Source: a virus
Lineage: Duplodnaviria > Heunggongvirae > Uroviricota > Caudoviricetes
Strand: one strand, 5' to 3'
Length of the DNA: 7,663 nucleotides
IMG/VR virus record: IMGVR_UViG_2778261534_000005
The notes beneath the pieces were generated by a model, which saw nothing but the letters and a program-made list of their open reading frames with translations, made no database searches and had not been told where the DNA came from. Every line of letters starts with the position of its first letter. The first letter of the stretch is position 1. The translations under genes were made by a program, and so were the position numbers. Shown here piece after piece: positions 1 through 7,663 of the stretch.

Positions 1-30
1 CAAGCCATAGGGAGGTGTAGAGAAACCGTT

Positions 31-72
31 AAGGTGTCTGTACAGTTACATCTTAAACAACCATCACAGTGA
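31..72. repeat. Copy A of a degenerate dispersed repeat (aaggtg ... agttacatcttaa ... acagtga)
   Basis: The 13-mer agttacatcttaa at 44..56 recurs exactly at 319..331. Both copies are preceded by aaggtg (31..36 and 313..318) and followed by acagtga (66..72 and 331..337). Copy A carries short insertions relative to copy B. Confidence 0.55.
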
Positions 73-312
73 TGTCAAATAGTTCTTTTAAGAAGGGAGG
101 GTTCTTTCTCATGTATCACCCTCTCTTCCCGTTAAGTAAGCTACACAGACCTAGAGAACATGCTCTGTAACACCTTCACAAACATTGACTAAGGTCAACT
201 TCATAAACTCAGAGTTAAGTTACCTTGAAAGATTTTACCAAGAAACTACACAGGTGTTATTTAGTCTGACTGTGAAGGGATATTTAACGGGAGAGAAAGT
301 AACGATATACCG

Positions 313-337
313 AAGGTGAGTTACATCTTAACAGTGA
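313..337. repeat. Copy B of the same degenerate dispersed repeat
   Basis: Same motif order as copy A (aaggtg, agttacatcttaa, acagtga). Flanking sequence is also loosely alignable: gttaagtaag occurs at 131..140 and 451..460, and aagaag-gaggg-like runs follow both copies. Confidence 0.55.
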
Positions 338-411
338 CTGTAAGAGATACCTGAAAAGATACTTAACAGAACTACCAAGAAGAGAGGGAACGATAAGACC
401 AGAGGTAGTGA

Positions 412-424
412 CCTGTTAAACAGG
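412..424. repeat. 13-bp palindrome CCTGTT-A-AACAGG
   Basis: 6-bp arms are exact reverse complements around a single central base, inside the repeat-rich noncoding block. Confidence 0.5.
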
Positions 425-845
425 CTGTTTCAAAGTCTCTTAAGAAATCTGTTAAGTAAGGGCTATGTGACCAATATTACCATTTTGTCAATGCTTTTGT
501 CTTTGACCTAAATCAATAAAATGTATCGTTTGATATGCTTTTAAACAAAATGGCTAAAAAATCTTTTTAGAGGGGCGCTTCGCTTGTGTCACCAATATAT
601 TCTTCCCTGTCTAAGAGGGAAGTTACAGGGACATTTCAAAGCCCTCAATAGACAAACCGAGGAACACGGGAAACCGAGGGAAGAAAAATCTATTGTGATT
701 GCCTTGAACAAGGTCTGTAAAGGTCGTTTAAGGGGTCGGTTAAGAAAGGAGCTTCCCTCTCTGGGGTTATCGCTCTTCTCTCGCTTAGTGGATTGATTAG
801 GGGTTGTGTTATACAAGCCCAACTAAGAAGACCTCTGAAGTTTCC

Positions 846-1035
846 CTGTGAAGAAGCTGAACAGCTATTATATATGGCTAATTACAACTAATTGAAAAAT
901 AAGCATTTTTAGAAGTTACTGTTAAGGTTACAGAGTTGTCTGTGAAGAGACTTGTCAGTTCTCTATATATGGCTAATTACAACTTATTGAAAAATAAGAA
1001 CTTTTAGAAGTTACTGTCAGAGAGGTGAATACTTG
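846..1035. repeat. Imperfect tandem duplication of a ~94-bp unit (846..939 and 940..~1035) with a near-identical 54-bp core
   Basis: Both units start with ctgtgaaga. The cores at 869..922 and 964..1017 (tatatatggctaattacaac-N-attgaaaaataag...ttttagaagttactgt) differ at only about 3 positions; the flanks are more diverged. Confidence 0.8.
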
Positions 1036-1098
1036 ATAGATACAGCTTTCCGGTTCTGTCAAGCTATTTTTTCATAGATAGCACAAAATGCTAAAGAT

Positions 1099-1128
1099 AC
1101 CCCTATACCATCACGTACAGGGGGTTTT
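1099..1128 (-). terminator. Putative hairpin terminator for the leftward small-protein transcript, possibly bidirectional
   Basis: Stem 1100..1108 pairs with 1115..1123 (9 bp; one G-U wobble in the minus-strand RNA, which is an A-C mismatch on plus), loop 1109..1114. It sits 14 nt downstream of the minus-strand stop at 1138..1140 and is followed on the minus strand by a U-rich but interrupted tail; on the plus strand TTTT (1125..1128) follows. Confidence 0.35.
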
Positions 1129-1137
1129 GGAGGGATT

Positions 1138-1326
1138 TTAACGAGGGTCTGTATGGTTGTCTTCACGGCCTCTGTCCTTGAGGTCAAACGACCATTCACG
1201 ACCAAACAACCGAAACACGATAAACACCCTGACGATGAAATAGCGAAGTAGTAGGCCTGCAATCAGCCCAACACCTCCACCAGCCCATACATCAGGTGAC
1301 CCCAGTTCAGGAGGGAGATTTACCAT
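1138..1326 (-). CDS. Small membrane protein, 62 aa, one predicted transmembrane helix; function unknown
   Basis: ORF-track product MVNLPPELGSPDVWAGGGVGLIAGLLLRYFIVRVFIVFRLFG... has a hydrophobic core followed by a charged tail. GAAGG Shine-Dalgarno about 8 nt upstream of the ATG on the minus strand; extended -10 promoter ~110 nt upstream; hairpin after the stop. Local GC is higher than in the flanking noncoding DNA. Confidence 0.4.
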   Translation of the reverse strand: MVNLPPELGSPDVWAGGGVGLIAGLLLRYFIVRVFIVFRLFGREWSFDLKDRGREDNHTDPR

Positions 1327-1440: not shown

Positions 1441-1470
1441 ATTATACCATAAATGTTAATAAATTGTTAA
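1441..1470 (-). promoter_or_regulatory. Leftward sigma70-type promoter with an extended -10 (TGnTATAAT)
   Basis: The minus strand reads TTAACA (plus 1470..1465), an 18-nt spacer, then TGGTATAAT (plus 1449..1441). The -10 hexamer is a perfect TATAAT with the TG extension. Confidence 0.5.
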
Positions 1471-1558: not shown

Positions 1559-2113
1559 ATGAGAGACGCAGAATTTAGAGCGATGCTTCAGGCATCAAAA
1601 GAACGCAACAGACACAACGGTTACAGCTACACAAACAACCCCACCAGCTACGAAGTCCCAGCCTTTACCAAATCCGAACGTAAAAACATTGAAGCGGTCA
1701 TTCGTAGCATTACGCCACGAGACAGATTTATGCCAACTAGAAAGAGCACCCAGAACAGCATCAAAAATTATCTGGCTAGTTTTGACAGCTACGAGCAACT
1801 ACCAAGCAAGCTTGATGATATTTTCATTGGATTCTGTAGAGGTGAAGGTCACCCAAAATACAACAGAAAGCTATTTTATATTCTAAAGAATCTTGACGAA
1901 ATTAACACATGCAGCGTGACAAATCATCTTCAAAGACAATCAACCAGACTTAGCTACGAATTACCAACCGATGCCTATTGTGCATTGCTTGCTGTAATGT
2001 GTGCAAAGCTAATTGGTGTTGTTGAGCATCATGTTGCCGTTGGAAATATTGAGCCAATGGAAAACGAGCAACCAGATTTCGAGTTTGACCCGTATATTTT
2101 GGAGGAATTTTAA
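1559..2113 (+). CDS. Hypothetical protein, 184 aa, basic N-terminus and acidic C-terminus
   Basis: Long ORF directly downstream of the promoter; AAGAGGG ribosome-binding site at 1542..1548. First gene of a tightly packed chain. No family recognised by eye. Confidence 0.7.
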   Translation: MRDAEFRAMLQASKERNRHNGYSYTNNPTSYEVPAFTKSERKNIEAVIRSITPRDRFMPTRKSTQNSIKNYLASFDSYEQLPSKLDDIFIGFCRGEGHPKYNRKLFYILKNLDEINTCSVTNHLQRQSTRLSYELPTDAYCALLAVMCAKLIGVVEHHVAVGNIEPMENEQPDFEFDPYILEEF

Positions 2114-2116
2114 ATA

Positions 2117-2395
2117 ATGAATAAACACACATTAACCCGTATTTCAGAGGAAGCTTTTAACGAGCTTACCAGAATTAAACGAGCTACTAACTTGCCTCAT
2201 CAAACTGTTATGCAACTTGCAATCGCTAAAGAAGTCACTGAGTCGGATTTACTTAAATATCCAGTCTCTAAAGGTCGTAAACACATCCGAATTACTACGG
2301 ACGCTTTAGATACTTTGAAGGCACTTAACAGCTTTAAAATTGATATTGCCCGACTATTGAGCATCAAGATTCACAAATTATCTCAGGAGGTCTGA
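2117..2395 (+). CDS. Hypothetical small protein, 92 aa; possible ribbon-helix-helix-like DNA-binding protein
   Basis: GGAGG at 2101..2105; starts 3 nt after the upstream stop. The N-terminus (TLTRISEEAFNELTRIKRATNLPHQTVMQLAIAKEV) has a strand-helix-helix pattern reminiscent of CopG/Arc-type folds. The fold assignment is inference only. Confidence 0.65.
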   Translation: MNKHTLTRISEEAFNELTRIKRATNLPHQTVMQLAIAKEVTESDLLKYPVSKGRKHIRITTDALDTLKALNSFKIDIARLLSIKIHKLSQEV

Positions 2396-2397
2396 TT

Positions 2398-2670
2398 ATG
2401 AAGCAATGGCGAGATGATATTAAACGGTTCTTTGCAACTTACTTCATGATTAATTACGAAACAGGAATGCTTGAATGGATTGATGGCGGAGAGGTTAAGA
2501 CAAGAGATGATGCTTACGGTAATCCAATGATTCGTTATGGCACTCGTGATTATTATGTGAAGTATGTCATCTGGTTTTTGCATCATGAAGTTCAGGCAAC
2601 TAAAAAGATTATCTTCAGGGATGGTAATAAAAGAAATTGCCACCCAAACAATTTGCTACAGGAGGTTTAA
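2398..2670 (+). CDS. HNH_3-like (homing-endonuclease-related) small protein, 90 aa; canonical catalytic His not evident
   Basis: AGGAGG at 2385..2390 with 7-nt spacing; starts 2 nt after the upstream stop. The C-terminal IIFRDGNKRNCHPNNL (nt 2608..2655) matches the DGNK-N...NL core of HNH_3-type endonucleases, but Phe-Arg sits where His-Ile is usual. Confidence 0.7.
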   Translation: MKQWRDDIKRFFATYFMINYETGMLEWIDGGEVKTRDDAYGNPMIRYGTRDYYVKYVIWFLHHEVQATKKIIFRDGNKRNCHPNNLLQEV

Positions 2671-3056
2671 TGTATGACTTTTATAAACATCGTGACCATT
2701 TGGTAAGATTTGACGGTAAAGTCTGGAAAGACGTAACACAAACCAATAAGCCCAAGTTTACCCACCAGCAATTAGCCTCAAGATTTGATATCTGGACTGA
2801 AGCACAAAAAGATAATGGTGATTTCGAGTTTATCAGGGGTTTTGATTATGCTTACGAAGACGACCTTAAAGACGCCATTAAATTAATTGAGAATTTCAAC
2901 TCTATTAAAAGTGGTGACAAGCACAAAGCCAATGGTAACAGATACGATAAAGATTTAATCATTGATGCAATCACCAAAGGACAATCACAAAGTTATATTT
3001 CTGAGAAATACGGTTTATCACGCAGTCAATACTACAAGATTAAAGCGTCTGTGTAA
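2670..3056 (+). CDS. Putative DNA-binding protein, 128 aa, with a C-terminal recombinase/invertase-type helix-turn-helix
   Basis: The ATG at 2670 overlaps the upstream TAA (TAATG); GGAGG at 2661..2665. The ORF track starts this frame at a TTG at 2637, but the ATG with its Shine-Dalgarno is the more likely start. The C-terminal SQSYISEKYGLSRSQYYKIK resembles HTH_7/Hin-type helix-turn-helix motifs. Confidence 0.7.
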   Translation: MYDFYKHRDHLVRFDGKVWKDVTQTNKPKFTHQQLASRFDIWTEAQKDNGDFEFIRGFDYAYEDDLKDAIKLIENFNSIKSGDKHKANGNRYDKDLIIDAITKGQSQSYISEKYGLSRSQYYKIKASV

Positions 3057-3193: not shown

Positions 3194-3517
3194 ATGAACA
3201 ATCACCCAATGCAAATTTTCGTTGATAACGACACCGCCATGATGATTCAGGCTTTCAGTGATGTAGGTGTTGGCATTGACTTTGATAAGTTGTTAGAGTT
3301 AATGGCTGCTAATGCAGAAAACATCTCTGACTTTATTCAGTCGGTGGAGTTTAACGAGCCTCGAATGATGCTACCAATTTCAGACAGCAACATGAAAAGA
3401 TTGGTTATCGAGCAAACGAACAAATACAGCGTTAGCCCTGAAAGATATCTCAAGGCAGCTATAGCAATTTTGTACGCTGACAATATTTTGGTGACGGATT
3501 CCGTGAGGGTTCACTAA
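3194..3517 (+). CDS. Hypothetical protein, 107 aa
   Basis: AGAGGA ribosome-binding site at 3179..3184, 9 nt before the ATG. No family recognised. Confidence 0.65.
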   Translation: MNNHPMQIFVDNDTAMMIQAFSDVGVGIDFDKLLELMAANAENISDFIQSVEFNEPRMMLPISDSNMKRLVIEQTNKYSVSPERYLKAAIAILYADNILVTDSVRVH

Positions 3518-3594
3518 TGACGTTAATTGTATTATGGACGCTGTTAGGCTTATTTGTTGGCTGCATTATTAACAATGCGGTAAATAAGAATTGA
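3517..3594 (+). CDS. Small hydrophobic peptide, 25 aa (MTLIVLWTLLGLFVGCIINNAVNKN), possible single-pass membrane peptide
   Basis: Absent from the ORF track (too short). The ATG at 3517 overlaps the upstream TAA (TAATG); GAGGG at 3505..3509 with 7-nt spacing. Hydrophobic core followed by a polar basic tail. Confidence 0.4.
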   Translation: MTLIVLWTLLGLFVGCIINNAVNKN

Positions 3595-3618
3595 TGTTAC
3601 CAATCTGTTAAAAAGCTG

Positions 3619-3647
3619 TTGACAAATAACCTTAAGCATGACATAAT
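3619..3647 (+). promoter_or_regulatory. Sigma70-type promoter (TTGACA-17-CATAAT)
   Basis: Perfect -35 TTGACA at 3619..3624, 17-nt spacer, CATAAT at 3642..3647. Confidence 0.5.
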
Positions 3648-3656
3648 TTTAATTAT

Positions 3657-3684
3657 AGAGAGAATTGCTCTCTTATTTTTTTTT
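3657..3684 (+). terminator. Hairpin plus T-tract (intrinsic-terminator-like) just downstream of the promoter
   Basis: agagag (3657..3662) pairs with ctctct (3668..3673), loop aattg, followed by tattttttttt (3674..3684). Confidence 0.5.
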
Positions 3685-3817
3685 CAACAATTCCATCTAC
3701 ATCTAGGGATAGTTATTCTGAAAGGTGCAATGCTTTTCGCTACATGGCCTCTTATATAACCTGAGAGGTCATCTCGAAAAGTCTTTGTTCATTCATTATT
3801 GAATCCTTTACAGCTTT

Positions 3818-3856
3818 GCCCTAACTCATGATTAGGGCGTTTCTTTAAGAGTTTTT
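3818..3856 (+). terminator. Hairpin plus U-rich tail (terminator-like)
   Basis: gccctaa (3818..3824) pairs with ttagggc (3832..3838), 7-nt loop, then gtttctttaagagttttt. Confidence 0.4.
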
Positions 3857-3915
3857 AAACAGAACTTTTAAAGAAAGTTTTTCCTGAAACTTCGTTAACG
3901 TTAAAGCAAACCTTC

Positions 3916-3960
3916 AAAGCCCTTCACAGATGAGGATGAACCTATGTTTAGGGCTTTTTT
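3916..3960 (+). terminator. Hairpin with a large loop plus T-tract (terminator-like)
   Basis: aaagccct (3916..3923) pairs with agggcttt (3950..3957) around a 26-nt loop; the T run extends to 3960. Confidence 0.35.
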
Positions 3961-4070
3961 CAGCTTTTAAAAAGCATACTTGGCAAACGCCTTTTAAGCC
4001 TCTTCTAAGTTCGAGGATGTCAGGTGTGCTTTTTAAAAACTGAATATTACTTAGAAGAGGAAATGAAATA

Positions 4071-4781
4071 ATGGCAAATGACATTTATATTAGTGGAAGA
4101 AAAATTGATAGCTTCGGTGACTGGTCGCCACAGACTGAACATCCAGCTATCGCTATTCAGCGCAAAGAGCACGATGAAAGAATTGCACTTGAGCAAGAGT
4201 TAAAGATGACACCAAAGGAAATTACCTTTGTGTCTCCTGAGCCTCAAGAGATGCCTGATGTATGCAAAACTGAATCATTACTTGAGCTTGAGCGTGAATA
4301 TTACCCACTACTGAAAGCACAAAGAATTAAACTTGATATTGCTTACGATGCGGTTAAGAACTTCGAAGAAACCTCGAAACCTTCAGAATATGATATTGCT
4401 TACGAGATTAAGTCAAACCCATTTATCTATTATGAAGGAAACTTTAATGATGGTTTTGGTACAGCGATTGAAGACGTTCCTAAAGTTCTTCAAAGTATCC
4501 CTGAAGGGTTCCGGTTAATTGATGTCAGACAAGCATTAAGGGGTTCTGGTCAATTTATCCTGATGAGTGATAAGACAGATGAAGAGATTCTTCAGTTAGC
4601 TGAAGCTAATTTGACTAAGCATTATTCCGGTAAACTGGATAAGTTAAAGCAAAAGCTTAGAAAAGAACTTGATAGCATGAAAGAACTTGTTAGTGAATAT
4701 GAATCACAGAAGAAGATTGCTATGCAGGCTGATATTGAGCAGTTAGTGAAGATTTCAACGAAGTACGCAAAGGTGCTTTAA
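4071..4781 (+). CDS. Hypothetical acidic protein, 236 aa; possible tail assembly chaperone by position (inference)
   Basis: GAGG at 4057..4060 about 10 nt before the ATG. First gene after the long noncoding region and two genes upstream of the tape measure gene. Rich in Asp/Glu with a helical, charged C-terminus. Confidence 0.7.
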   Translation: MANDIYISGRKIDSFGDWSPQTEHPAIAIQRKEHDERIALEQELKMTPKEITFVSPEPQEMPDVCKTESLLELEREYYPLLKAQRIKLDIAYDAVKNFEETSKPSEYDIAYEIKSNPFIYYEGNFNDGFGTAIEDVPKVLQSIPEGFRLIDVRQALRGSGQFILMSDKTDEEILQLAEANLTKHYSGKLDKLKQKLRKELDSMKELVSEYESQKKIAMQADIEQLVKISTKYAKVL

Positions 4782-5067: not shown

Positions 5068-5099
5068 TCGTATATGAACACTTAAGAGGTGAAACATGA

Positions 5100-7277
5100 A
5101 TGAGCAAATTCACAGTTGATAGTTTTATCGTTGAGCTAGGCTTCAGCGAGAACGTTATTAAGGGCTTGCAAAGAGTTGAAAAGGCAGCTTTGCAGTCAGC
5201 ACAAAGAATTGAAAAGAACCTAAATAAAGGTTTCAGGATTAATACAAAGCAGCTTGATAGTAATTTAACGACTTCTTTAGGGCAACTTGAAAGGAAGTTT
5301 AATAAGACCTTTGACAAGATTGAACAGAGAGCAAGAAACACAAAAGTTTTCCGTTTCACAAGTCAGGTTAATGACGCTATTAATCCTCCAAAACAACCAA
5401 GACAGCCACGAATTAGCGGAAACAGAGCAATCACAGCAGCTTATTCAGCGAATATGAGCAAGCTAAAAGGCTTTGACCCTATTTTGCAGAAATACATCAA
5501 ATCTCAGTTTTACGGGCTATCTGCTAAAGCTGGGTCAATGGATAATTCAAAATTCAATGAGAAGCTGGCTCAGTTAAACACTTCAGTCAGAGAAGCAATT
5601 GCTAAAGCCAGAGGTCATACATCCACCAGCATTAACAATACAAGCGACGCATTTAATAATCTTGCAAGCAATGCGATTAAATTATCTGGTGCATTTTACT
5701 CTGTGATGGGTGCTCTTAACGCTTACAAGGCCATTATGAATGCAGGTCTTAAACGAGATTCCGCACAGAGAGCCGCTAAGTTTGTACTTGGTGATAAAGC
5801 ATCTGAAGCTGAAACATTTATCAGGGGACTGGCTGACAAGACAGGTCTTAATATCTCTGAAGGGCTATCAAGCTACGCTAAGTTTGCAGCAGGTGCTCAG
5901 GGTTCTATGTCACAGGAACAGACACAGGAGCTATTTGGTAATGCAACGGCTATGAGTCGCTTAATGGGGCTTTCTAACGACGAGCTAAACGGCATTCTGA
6001 AAGCATTTGAGCAGATGGCGAGCAAGGGCAAGATTCAAGCTGAAGAGCTTCGTGGGCAGTTAGGTGACCGTATGGCTGGTGCATTTAAGCTATTCGCTGA
6101 AGCATTGGGTATGACTGCTACAGAGCTTGATAAAGCGATGAAAGACGGGAAGATTTTAAGTAGTGATACTCTCCCTAAAGTCGCTAAACAGATGGGCTTG
6201 ATGATTGATAAAGCGGGTGGTTGGGCTGAAGTCGCTAAGAGCACTCAGACAGCTTTAGGTAAGTTAGCAAACAACTGGGATGACACGATGGTGAAAATCT
6301 TCTCAGGTTCACAGGATGAGCTAAATGGCTTCTTATCCAGCCTGAGTAACCTGCTTAGTGAAATGGGTATGAGTTCTTCTATCGCTGGTGATGCTATCGG
6401 TGGACTTATCGACATGCTTAAAGCTGGTGTAGATGATATCCGTATCTTTAACAATCACATTGAAGGCTGGATTTTACAGACTAAGAAGTTCTATTACAGC
6501 CTTGATGACACTAAACGAAAACTACTTGATGAAGTCGGTGATGGTTTTATCAATTTTGTCAAAGGTCTTGCTATAGCGTTATCTGCAAAGACGCTATTCA
6601 GTGCTACTACAGGGGTTATGAACCTGACAAGAGCAATCACAACGTTAGGTACAAGAGCTAATCAGGTGGCTGGTCAGGTAGCTACTGGTAAAGGTGGTGG
6701 AAAACTGAAAGGTGTAGCTGGTGGTGTAGGTAGTGCTCTTGCAATTGGTTATGCTGATGACGGTTATGAAACAGCGTTAGCATTAGCTTCAATGATTCCA
6801 CAAATCAGAGGTGTCACTCTTGGTTTATATGCATTGAAGAAAGCACTGGATTTTATGAATCAGGAAGTAGTCAAAAACGCTAATATGCATCCATCTGGGG
6901 TAGGTGTGGGTAGTGACTTTAATCCTGTGTATTCTGGTGACCCTAATAAACCGAATGTGATTAACGAAGGATGGAGTAGAATTTTTAGTTCAATGGGTGA
7001 ATTGTTTAACAATGCCACAATGAATATTGCAAGATTCAATCATCCAGAATTGATTACCATGAAACAAGATGCATCATTAACGAGCACTGACATCCAAAAT
7101 CTAAGAGATGAAATTAGTGCTTTGAGTAAACGTATTCAGGAGCCAGTGAAAGTTTCACTTGGTGGTGAAGTTGCCATTAAACCAGATGAAACCAGCTTTA
7201 TGACCTTTAGCAGTAATATCTACGACCAATATGCAGAAGCTACGTTATTAAGTTCATCATTCCCAGAAGATGATTGA
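5100..7277 (+). CDS. Phage tail tape measure protein, 725 aa
   Basis: AAGAGGTGA ribosome-binding site 8 nt upstream. Residues ~291..366 (nt ~5970..6197; LSNDELNGILKAFEQMASKGKIQAEELRGQLGDRMAGAFKLFAEALGMTATELDKAMKDGKILSSDTLPKVAKQMG) match the conserved tape measure domain pattern. Long Ala/Gly/Leu-rich helical-looking protein with a Gly-rich segment at residues ~526..549. Confidence 0.85.
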   Translation: MSKFTVDSFIVELGFSENVIKGLQRVEKAALQSAQRIEKNLNKGFRINTKQLDSNLTTSLGQLERKFNKTFDKIEQRARNTKVFRFTSQVNDAINPPKQPRQPRISGNRAITAAYSANMSKLKGFDPILQKYIKSQFYGLSAKAGSMDNSKFNEKLAQLNTSVREAIAKARGHTSTSINNTSDAFNNLASNAIKLSGAFYSVMGALNAYKAIMNAGLKRDSAQRAAKFVLGDKASEAETFIRGLADKTGLNISEGLSSYAKFAAGAQGSMSQEQTQELFGNATAMSRLMGLSNDELNGILKAFEQMASKGKIQAEELRGQLGDRMAGAFKLFAEALGMTATELDKAMKDGKILSSDTLPKVAKQMGLMIDKAGGWAEVAKSTQTALGKLANNWDDTMVKIFSGSQDELNGFLSSLSNLLSEMGMSSSIAGDAIGGLIDMLKAGVDDIRIFNNHIEGWILQTKKFYYSLDDTKRKLLDEVGDGFINFVKGLAIALSAKTLFSATTGVMNLTRAITTLGTRANQVAGQVATGKGGGKLKGVAGGVGSALAIGYADDGYETALALASMIPQIRGVTLGLYALKKALDFMNQEVVKNANMHPSGVGVGSDFNPVYSGDPNKPNVINEGWSRIFSSMGELFNNATMNIARFNHPELITMKQDASLTSTDIQNLRDEISALSKRIQEPVKVSLGGEVAIKPDETSFMTFSSNIYDQYAEATLLSSSFPEDD

Positions 7278-7373: not shown

Positions 7374-7663
<290 letters not shown>

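Follow-up and report, generated by a model that had tools for sequence, protein, structure and literature searches.

What purpose could be served by a near-consensus promoter whose transcripts would run almost at once into terminator-like hairpins? This question is raised by an intergenic region in a 7,663-nucleotide (nt) stretch of DNA, virus record IMGVR_UViG_2778261534_000005 of IMG/VR, which is called the window here at its full length. The region lies downstream of a gene for a 107-amino-acid (aa) protein, carries the promoter P2 and a leader of about 415 nt, and is followed by an operon that encodes a 236-aa protein, a 67-aa protein, a tape measure and a Dit-like baseplate protein. Comparison with related loci argues for a conserved, structured leader RNA on the plus strand, and we are much more certain of its existence than of any account of its function. 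The account that we prefer, with moderate confidence, is that this leader RNA limits expression of the tail operon through premature termination of transcription and masking of a ribosome-binding site.

Promoter P2 and the conserved leader RNA

Relatives of the region were collected in two sets. The first was reached through a flanking protein and BLAST, independently of the promoter sequence, and comprises 22 loci, 21 of which cover the promoter and leader; the second was retrieved from viral and metagenome collections with exact sequence patterns. Both sets together hold 92 complete leaders, 80 of them distinct, and the alignment of the last hairpin and its loop comprises 65 distinct sequences. 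The flanking proteins of the compared loci are 26-92% identical, and leader length ranges from 281 to 480 nt in the relatives. The leaders are mosaics of exchangeable, recombining modules: an optional extra hairpin of 27 nt after the -10 hexamer, a T2-H4 module that is present or absent, insertions or deletions (indels) of 19 or 38 nt in the loop of T3, and two alleles of the last hairpin. The elements from the promoter to the nested hairpin M2 are the following.

3605-3609 and 3616-3620, + strand: CTGTT repeats, 11 bp apart, flanking an A-tract (3610-3614) and overlapping the -35 hexamer
3619..3647, + strand: promoter P2, with TTGACA (3619-3624), a 17-bp spacer, TG-n and CATAAT (3642-3647)
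3657..3673, + strand: hairpin 1, the 5' stem-loop, AGAGAG-AATTG-CTCTCT, 6 bp with a 5-nt loop, -6.7 kcal/mol
3676..3684, + strand: T9 tract, after TA behind hairpin 1, making the terminator-like element T1 in the window
3720..3739, + strand: invariant block GAAAGGTGCAATGCTTTTCG, 20 nt, which folds on itself (3720-3726/3732-3738) or pairs through its 3' half with 3775-3782
3732..3782, + strand: nested hairpin M2, outer stem 3732-3739/3775-3782, inner stem 3744-3752/3764-3772, -21.9 kcal/mol

An earlier note on this DNA had proposed a strong promoter, TTGACA-17-CATAAT, at 3619..3647. In line with this, P2 is the best match of a promoter scan in the window, agreeing at 11/12 positions and carrying an extended -10 through the TG at 3639-3640. 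Any site of at least 11/12 with this TG arose in only 41/2000 first-order random sequences of the same size and composition. Each of the 21 loci that were retrieved independently and cover the stretch carries P2, with CATAAT in 19 of them, and CATAAT is found in 71 of the 80 distinct leaders. From this arrangement, transcription is predicted to start near 3654/3655. Despite the divergence of the flanking proteins, the promoter block TGTTACCAATCTGTTAAAAAGCTGTTGACAAATAACCTTRAGCATGACATAAT hardly varies among the loci retrieved independently, and the same holds for the block TGTTACCAATCTGTTAAAAAGC at the CTGTT repeats. The spacer does not vary, and the transcript would begin with AT-rich sequence, reading TGTATATATAG in most relatives and TTTAATTATAG in the window; TGTATATATAG is common to P2 of most relatives and the early promoter of the island (1478-1517). 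The A-tract at 3610-3614 is found where a proximal UP element would lie, and together with the CTGTT repeats it may form an UP-like element and a candidate protein-binding site. The longer word CTGTTAA is enriched in the window, with 10 copies where 1.8 are expected.

The folding energy of the leader separates the two strands. Relative to shuffled sequences, the fold of the window leader has z = -6.9 on the plus strand and -3.6 on the minus strand; the plus strand is the more stable one in 10/10 diverse leaders, with plus-strand z scores of -5.6 to -8.9. Two open reading frames (ORFs) in the leader, a 46-aa frame from TTG at 3619-3759 and a 56-aa minus-strand frame at 3914-4084, were considered as coding sequences and rejected. 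Close relatives differ here by module swaps and by indels of 1, 2 and 4 nt, and such small indels exclude a coding role on either strand. A search of Rfam with cmscan at E <= 1 gave no match for the window, and for seven relatives it returned only a sub-threshold match of the long hairpin to a plant microRNA.

Hairpin 1 is constant in its presence: its stem was found in 80/80 distinct leaders, with energies from -6.7 to -13 kcal/mol. Among 14 distinct stem variants of the common type, the sole pair other than A-U, G-C or G.U is the outermost T-T of one variant, and A-U to G-C exchanges occur at two positions. Its G.U pairs would become A.C mismatches if read on the minus strand. Because the stem is universal and a T-rich tail follows it in only 37 of the 80 leaders, what is conserved in hairpin 1 is a stem-loop at the 5' end and not a terminator, and the T9 tract of the window is best read as one allele. 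The window carries an exact inversion of the common type of hairpin 1, and the sequence of the loop is therefore not what selection keeps; the stem-loop itself probably protects the end of the RNA. Both hairpin 1 and the loop of T2 occur in either orientation among the relatives: reverse-complementing AGAGAGAATTGCTCTCT gives exactly AGAGAGCAATTCTCTCT, and the T2 loop reads either CTCATGA or TCATGAG. These are presumably inversions that arose by template switching within palindromes. A boxA-like sequence in hairpin 1, TGCTCTCTTA, was considered and rejected, since it is found only in the inverted type carried by the window.

Further into the leader, the block GAAAGGTGCAATGCTTTTCG shows no difference among the 21 loci that were retrieved independently and cover it, and it forms a second conservation peak (0.92). 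The consensus fold by RNAalifold gives a local hairpin at 3720-3739, and the single-sequence fold gives the alternative pairing with 3775-3782. The block is thus a second possible point of alternative structure. The inner stem of M2 varies, with G-C, G.U and A-U exchanges among relatives and a change from CCTCT/AGAGG to CCTAT/ATAGG.

Terminator-like hairpins and the loop complementary to the Shine-Dalgarno region

Downstream of M2, the leader continues with a second group of elements that reaches the first gene of the operon.

3817..3846, + strand: T2, stem GCCCTAA/TTAGGGC (3818-3824/3832-3838), -10.7 kcal/mol, followed by TTTCTTT (3840-3846)
3840..3876, + strand: AU-rich hairpin H4 (3840-3853/3863-3876), arms 93% complementary, -13.3 kcal/mol
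3916..3960, + strand: T3, stem AAAGCCCT/AGGGCTTT (3916-3923/3950-3957), -14.1 kcal/mol, followed by T6 to 3960
3959..4044, + strand: long hairpin (LH), 27-bp stem 3959-3985/4018-4044 with a 32-nt loop, -33.1 kcal/mol
3999..4010, + strand: anti-Shine-Dalgarno (anti-SD) sequence CCTCTTCTAAGT, in the loop of LH
4049..4060, + strand: Shine-Dalgarno (SD) region ACTTAGAAGAGG of the 236-aa gene, with GAGG at 4057-4060 ahead of ATG at 4071
4071..4781, + strand: 236-aa gene, first of the operon, starting with ATG at 4071

The hairpin with a T-tract that had been described at 3657..3684 is present as hairpin 1 (3657-3673) and T9 (3676-3684), and the two further hairpin/U-tract elements reported behind it are found at 3817-3846 (T2) and 3916-3960 (T3). 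A GC-containing stem followed by a U-tract on the transcribed strand, as in an intrinsic terminator, was recognized at T1 and T2 by the terminator scan and at T3 by folding; the scan accepts loops of no more than 8 nt and therefore missed T3, whose loop has 26 nt, is partly paired and carries the 19- and 38-nt indels. T2 occurs in 62/80 leaders, with a T-rich tail in every one. The 5' arm of H4 is the U-tract of T2, and H4 is kept wherever the T2 module occurs. The T3 hairpin, GCCCT...AGGGC, is present in 78/80 leaders, and at least four T residues directly follow its stem in 69/78. The proposed order of a promoter followed by terminators is therefore a conserved feature in its general form, since at least one hairpin with a U-tract lies between P2 and the last hairpin in 77/80 distinct leaders, whereas the first supposed terminator lacks its T-tract in the relatives that do not belong to the 37 mentioned above. 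Across relatives, 3' ends are predicted at about 200 nt from the start for T2 and at about 225-315 nt for T3. Termination within the leader, and short RNAs of about 30, 190 and 305 nt in the window, are reasonable predictions from these sequences.

LH is supported by covariation. In the 65 distinct sequences, 96.9% of the alignment cells of its stem are paired, compared with 41-56% in controls with slid partners, and 6 compensatory pairs have changed on both sides between allele A (41 sequences) and allele B (24 sequences). Its conserved G.U pairs fit the plus strand only. The 27-bp stem contains one mismatch and exceeds the 20 or so nearly perfect base pairs expected of an RNase III site; LH could serve as a substrate of this enzyme. 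Three long-range pairings, 3605-3618/3961-3974 (from the upstream flank of the promoter to LH), 3604-3641/3826-3863 and 3769-3787/3915-3933, were also considered and were rejected, as they are lost in the B-type or in other variants.

The loop of LH faces the ribosome-binding region of the operon. Positions 3999-4010 are complementary to 4049-4060 at 12/12 positions, giving a duplex of -19.0 kcal/mol, and 92% of the cells of this pairing are paired across the 65 sequences. In allele B the register of the anti-SD sequence is shifted by 2 nt and the helix still has 12 bp. The linker between the base of LH and the SD segment is 4 nt long; because it is so short, the full LH and the anti-SD helix should not form together in cis. 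The anti-SD duplex (-19.0 kcal/mol) and the AU-rich lower part of LH (-16.7 kcal/mol) are of comparable energy, and a switch between the two is therefore energetically plausible. Collectively, LH and the anti-SD sequence resemble a translational gate with two states, or else an antisense loop whose target is another RNA molecule.

Explanations for the leader and comparison with known systems

From the observed elements, with their conservation, covariation and strand, we infer termination, gating and the nature of a signal in the following way. P2, which is close to the sigma-70 consensus and has an extended -10 as well as an UP-like A-tract, would start a transcript that begins with a stem-loop a few bases from its 5' end and continues with the conserved block and M2. 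The polymerase would then meet one to three terminator-like hairpins; those of the window, T1, T2 and T3, lie at about +30, +190 and +305. Read-through would add the 27-bp hairpin to the transcript. Its loop is complementary to the SD region of the 236-aa gene, and the translational gate would alternate between the intact hairpin and the anti-SD helix. As a net effect, most transcripts would be short leader RNAs and the few long ones would be poorly translated, so that the tail genes would stay low until a signal raised initiation, read-through or translation. Candidates for the release are control of initiation at the CTGTT repeats, antitermination, RNase III processing of the 27-bp stem and action of the short leader RNA in trans. 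In satellite P4, a leader-derived RNA enforces premature termination, and at isrK, read-through of the terminator of a small RNA yields a translationally inactive messenger RNA (mRNA) that is reactivated by the short form (PMC4825925).

Several observations weigh against this explanation. Counted over the whole window, terminator-like sites do not exceed the chance expectation, with 3 found and 5.1 +/- 2.0 expected; the sites stand above chance because they are clustered on one strand behind the promoter and conserved in relatives. The T-rich tail behind hairpin 1 is found in fewer than half of the distinct leaders (37/80, 46%), the loop of T3 is unusually large for an intrinsic terminator, and 3/80 leaders are without a terminator-like element by the criteria used. 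The promoter sequence itself was used to retrieve 78 loci, and its invariance is independent only for the 21 loci found without it. The covariation amounts to few independent events, with essentially two alleles of LH, and the leaders recombine; counts of sequences thus overstate the support. That the full LH and the anti-SD helix exclude each other in cis is argued from geometry and was not computed. The position of the CTGTT repeats over the -35 hexamer could also mean that control is exerted mainly at initiation, with the terminators being secondary.

A strong promoter followed by several terminator-like elements, in a layout that is conserved, would also be expected of antitermination, in which P2 would be constitutive and the polymerase would stop at T1-T3 unless it were modified, at or just after the promoter, by a Q- or N-type protein or a put-type RNA from the island or an infecting phage. 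The invariance of the P2 spacer and upstream flank would be as for a factor-binding site, and TGTATATATAG contains -10-like hexamers, which are candidates for inducing sigma-dependent pausing. The earlier note had drawn an analogy of this kind, with the late promoter of lambda and its Q protein and with the put RNA of HK022, and had named the upstream 107-aa and helix-turn-helix proteins as candidate factors. The likeness to lambda PR'-tR', the source of 6S RNA, is a strong promoter with an intrinsic terminator at a short distance and a long structural operon behind it, together with a predicted short RNA (about 190 nt from P2 to T2). However, the leader has several terminators to the one of lambda and a translational layer in its anti-SD sequence, and its first hairpin starts at about +3 and has a U-tract that is not conserved. 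T1, at about +30, lies at or before the point at which Q engages, and its U-tract is dispensable in 54% of relatives. No Q homologue was found: none of the 8 ORFs of the window matches Q, N or another antiterminator family in Pfam, PHROGs or NCBIfam, none matches a solved antiterminator by sequence, and the leader matches no Rfam family. The 107-aa gene, which occupies the position of Q in lambdoid phages, gave a moderate-confidence model that matches the DNA-binding protein TraY only weakly (E about 0.1); its product has no zinc-finger cysteines and may, on this weak evidence, be a ribbon-helix-helix protein. With HK022 put RNA, which acts in factor-independent antitermination, the leader shares a structured RNA directly behind a strong phage-type promoter and ahead of terminators, but nothing marks the 5' stem-loop and M2 as put-like. 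A sequence-specific contact of RNA polymerase with hairpin 1 is unlikely because hairpin 1 tolerates complete inversion, which changes its loop sequence. Although a factor from a helper phage remains conceivable, we regard antitermination as improbable. The parts that had escaped the earlier reading, namely the block and nested hairpin at 3720-3782, LH at 3959-4044, the anti-SD loop and the CTGTT repeats over the -35, were not among its arguments, and the last two suggest that control is exerted in other ways, whether instead of antitermination or alongside it.

The main product of P2 could instead be a stable regulatory RNA that ends at T2 or T3 (about 190-320 nt), or a processed LH, and that base-pairs with its own read-through transcript or with other transcripts of the island or a phage, using the anti-SD loop as seed. 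A very strong promoter is followed here by terminators with U-tails typical of small RNAs, the first GC-rich terminator follows the predicted start at a rather uniform distance (median about 200 nt), and the invariant 20-nt block might serve as a seed or be bound by a protein. The complementarity of loop and SD region is conserved, and pairing in trans would not be hindered sterically by the long stem. Precedents in a satellite and in prophages are the CI RNA of P4, the c4 RNA of P1 and IsrK of Salmonella (PMC4825925). As in P4 CI RNA, P1/P7 c4 RNA and Gifsy-1 IsrK (Rfam family C4), a mobile element would silence genes by its own leader RNA, transcripts from a constitutive promoter would end prematurely, and one leader loop is complementary to the ribosome-binding region further downstream, here at 12/12 positions. 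Unlike them, the leader matches neither the C4 covariance model nor another Rfam family, and its 27-bp stem with a 32-nt loop is not the c4/CI fold. It has one target where P4 and P1 have two flanking ones; the only upstream candidate is the SD-like arm of M2, a weak pairing of 7 bp including wobbles that is not conserved and is lost in the relatives with the ATAGG variant. Moreover, the anti-SD sequence lies downstream of T3, so it would be present only in read-through transcripts unless these are processed, and there was no significant complementarity or similarity to the Felixounavirus genome. We consider a regulatory RNA as the main product possible but doubtful.

Another arrangement would dispense with a switch altogether: the elements would stop early-operon transcription and insulate the operons, the hairpins would stabilize the mRNA, and control would be exerted only at P2, with the CTGTT repeats as the site of a DNA-binding protein. 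The upstream genes end at 3594, and as no terminator separates them from P2, transcripts of the early operon would meet their first stops at T1-T3. The repeats, 11 bp apart, overlap the -35, their longer form CTGTTAA is enriched as given above, and the adjacent 107-aa protein may be a ribbon-helix-helix DNA binder, though the evidence is weak. A stem-loop at the extreme 5' end is a classical mRNA stabilizer, as in the ompA 5' untranslated region, and hairpin 1 would fit this role: it lies a few bases from the predicted 5' end in 80/80 relatives, whatever comes next, although in the window, unlike in stabilizers of the ompA type, it also precedes T9. Yet an insulator downstream of the promoter that it protects also stops the transcripts of that promoter, and the arrangement leaves unexplained the anti-SD helix with its length-preserving changes, the invariant 20-nt block and the two to three redundant terminators. 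We rate it as rather unlikely. Least credible of all is that the inverted repeats act as DNA, as an origin, packaging or recombination site of the island. AT-rich palindromes such as GCTTTTAAAAAGC do recur, the inversion of hairpin 1 and of the T2 loop in relatives is a DNA-level event, and similar short words occur in phage intergenic regions; but the similarity to phage DNA is not significant, and the conserved G.U pairs and the asymmetry in energy favor one strand. U-tracts follow the stems on the plus strand only, the elements sit exactly between promoter and Shine-Dalgarno sequence, and the repeat-rich non-coding region 1-1050 is a better candidate for cis-acting DNA functions.

Of the explanations weighed, we thus retain premature termination combined with masking of the ribosome-binding site as the preferred one. 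For the masking, the N leader of lambda offers a further comparison. There, a long stem is an RNase III site and occludes the ribosome-binding site of N. The two leaders share a long double-stranded stem directly upstream of the first gene and the involvement of the SD sequence in the structure, and the 27 bp of LH would be long enough for RNase III. They differ in that there is no sequence similarity and that the SD sequence here pairs with the loop, not with a stem arm. The logic of control is known and the RNA itself is undescribed: the layout of the leader resembles lambda PR'-tR' and the leaders of P4, c4 and IsrK, and it is a member of none of these systems, because no Q or N family protein was found with it and it has no C4 or other Rfam match, has one antisense target and folds differently.

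The island and its other genes

The window matches chromosomal DNA in 545/5426 complete Escherichia coli genomes, and a plasmid search with it gave no match. It is part of an integrative island of about 11 kb, as seen in annotated relatives that include L002 (19000-29800), L003 (4900-15400) and L117-L120, and the insertion sites differ, being located between ymdF and wrbA or inside yecE. The island begins with a small resolvase gene, a long non-coding stretch, a short early operon and the 107-aa gene; these are followed by the intergenic region of about 550 nt that holds the leader, the 236-aa and 67-aa genes, the tape measure gene, the Dit-like baseplate gene (PF21821) and, on the opposite strand, a large serine recombinase gene. 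No head or terminase genes were found in the islands examined, and neither a tRNA nor a tmRNA gene was found. Among 29 metagenome contigs there were no terminal overlaps that would indicate a circular or excised form, and the region 3400-4300 had no match among 50,697 phage records.

The gene at 4071 had been taken for the first tail gene. Its product has no detectable relationship to tail proteins, and the first recognizable tail gene is that of the tape measure at 5100. No family was found for the 236-aa protein in Pfam, PHROGs, NCBIfam or PADLOC; it has 3080 homologues, and no domain was found in any of the 120 best of these 3080. Its structure model is helical and of low confidence (predicted local distance difference test score [pLDDT], 58), and there was no similarity to a phage tape-measure chaperone. 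The RefSeq label "transposase" on many copies of this protein appears unfounded, because no Pfam, NCBIfam, PHROG or PADLOC model matches it. No family was found for the 67-aa protein, which likewise showed no similarity to the tape-measure chaperones of the phage.

Upstream of the leader, the 107-aa protein (3194-3517) has a moderate-confidence model (pLDDT 67) with two beta-alpha-alpha repeats. Its fold matches are all weak, and they are to TraY of the F relaxosome, a tandem ribbon-helix-helix protein, to DndE and to single-chain Arc. The protein may, going by this model, be a tandem ribbon-helix-helix DNA binder; if this holds, it is a candidate for binding the promoter rather than for antitermination. 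A weak match to DndE was also obtained for the 92-aa protein (2117-2395). The stop codon of the 107-aa gene is overlapped (TAATG) by a 25-aa hydrophobic ORF, MTLIVLWTLLGLFVGCIINNAVNKN (3517-3594), with a GAGGG of its own. Relatives keep an ORF at this position that differs in sequence and is still hydrophobic, and it is absent from the RefSeq annotation.

The early operon (1559-3056) occurs as two alternative modules ahead of the same 107-aa gene and leader (compare the window with L118-L120, 6500-9900, and L012, 4256-6534). One module encodes proteins of 184 and 92 aa, an HNH protein and a 139-aa helix-turn-helix protein; the other encodes a Dam methylase, an HTH_36 protein of about 320 aa and small ORFs. 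A divergent promoter pair lies at 1441-1530. Its plus-strand member, the early promoter TTGACA-17-TAGTAT (1478-1506), is followed by TGTATATATAG; both this promoter and P2 carry TGTTAAAAA upstream of the -35, and a TTAACAG motif lies at 1518-1524. On the minus strand, the strong promoter TTAACA-18-TATAAT with TG (1470..1441) precedes a small operon at 1100-1470 with an ORF of about 31 aa from 1415, an overlapping hydrophobic ORF of 62 aa (1326..1138) and a terminator-like hairpin at its end (1123..1100). This operon may encode a small membrane protein or toxin.

The first kilobase of the window (1-1050) contains no convincing ORF. CTGTTAA/TTAACAG motifs cluster there at 328, 363, 413, 449 and 919, and a 54-nt direct repeat (869-922 and 964-1017) is 94% identical between its copies. 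The segment 363-419 is 82% identical to a stretch (49667-49724) within the repeat-rich non-coding region of the Felixounavirus garuso, a region packed with YTGTTAAG. The first kilobase may function as an origin, in packaging or in regulation. The left end of the non-coding region is rich in ACC (ccacccatacc...ccagaccaagcc; L002 19914-19981, immediately to the left of where the window starts, and window 1-20) and shares 85% identity with two intergenic regions of Felixounavirus (garuso 5652-5719 and 4396-4474). Other similarities to Felixounavirus intergenic DNA, involving GTTAAAAAAGTTGTTGACAAA and the ribosome-binding-site context TTACTTAAAAGAGG, were dismissed as not significant, the best z of 4.7 being exceeded by the shuffle maximum, and CTTTAAGAG was rejected as a phage promoter motif with only 5 copies in 86 kb.

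Only two genes of the island are related to the Felixounavirus genome (phage garuso). The tape measure has 34% protein identity to its garuso counterpart, and the Dit gene has 81% DNA identity in other islands and 97% over 7458-7663 in the window. This start of the Dit-like gene has 97% DNA identity to more than 200 Felixounavirus genomes, and matches at 5091-5212 and 6003-6151 were noted as well. Because the Dit start is 97% identical here and about 81% identical in other copies, while the adjacent tape measure is at 34%, the sequences point to a recent gene exchange between this copy of the island and a virulent phage. The island has features of a phage satellite, being a small integrative element with recombinases of its own, without capsid or terminase genes, and with genes related to a phage. 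Its gene content suggests an element that lives as a satellite of Felix O1-like phages or interferes with their tails, and it is a candidate for this class; no description of such an island or of a Felixounavirus satellite was found in the literature searched.

These relationships suggest a more specific and more speculative role, to which we give only tentative credence. The leader might be the helper-sensing switch of undescribed E. coli satellites, or of tail-interfering defense islands, directed against virulent Felix O1-like phages. P2 of a resting island would then yield short leader RNAs only, and an event that depends on the infecting phage might release the island's tape measure and distal tail protein, which would be built into the tails of the helper or poison them. 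Candidate triggers are a protein acting on the YTGTTAA repeats that are common to P2 and the phage non-coding region, an antiterminator, and processing or refolding of the RNA at the 27-bp hairpin.

If the preferred explanation is true, about one-tenth of complete E. coli genomes carry a mobile island with tail genes under a conserved RNA leader of 300-480 nt, which has no Rfam family and no described relative. The leader would then be a compact natural example of three stacked controls, exerted at initiation, at termination and by masking of a ribosome-binding site. Felix O1-like phages are in use for typing and biocontrol of Salmonella and E. coli, and the leader offers a practical entry point to how the island uses a tape measure and a distal tail protein borrowed from these virulent phages.

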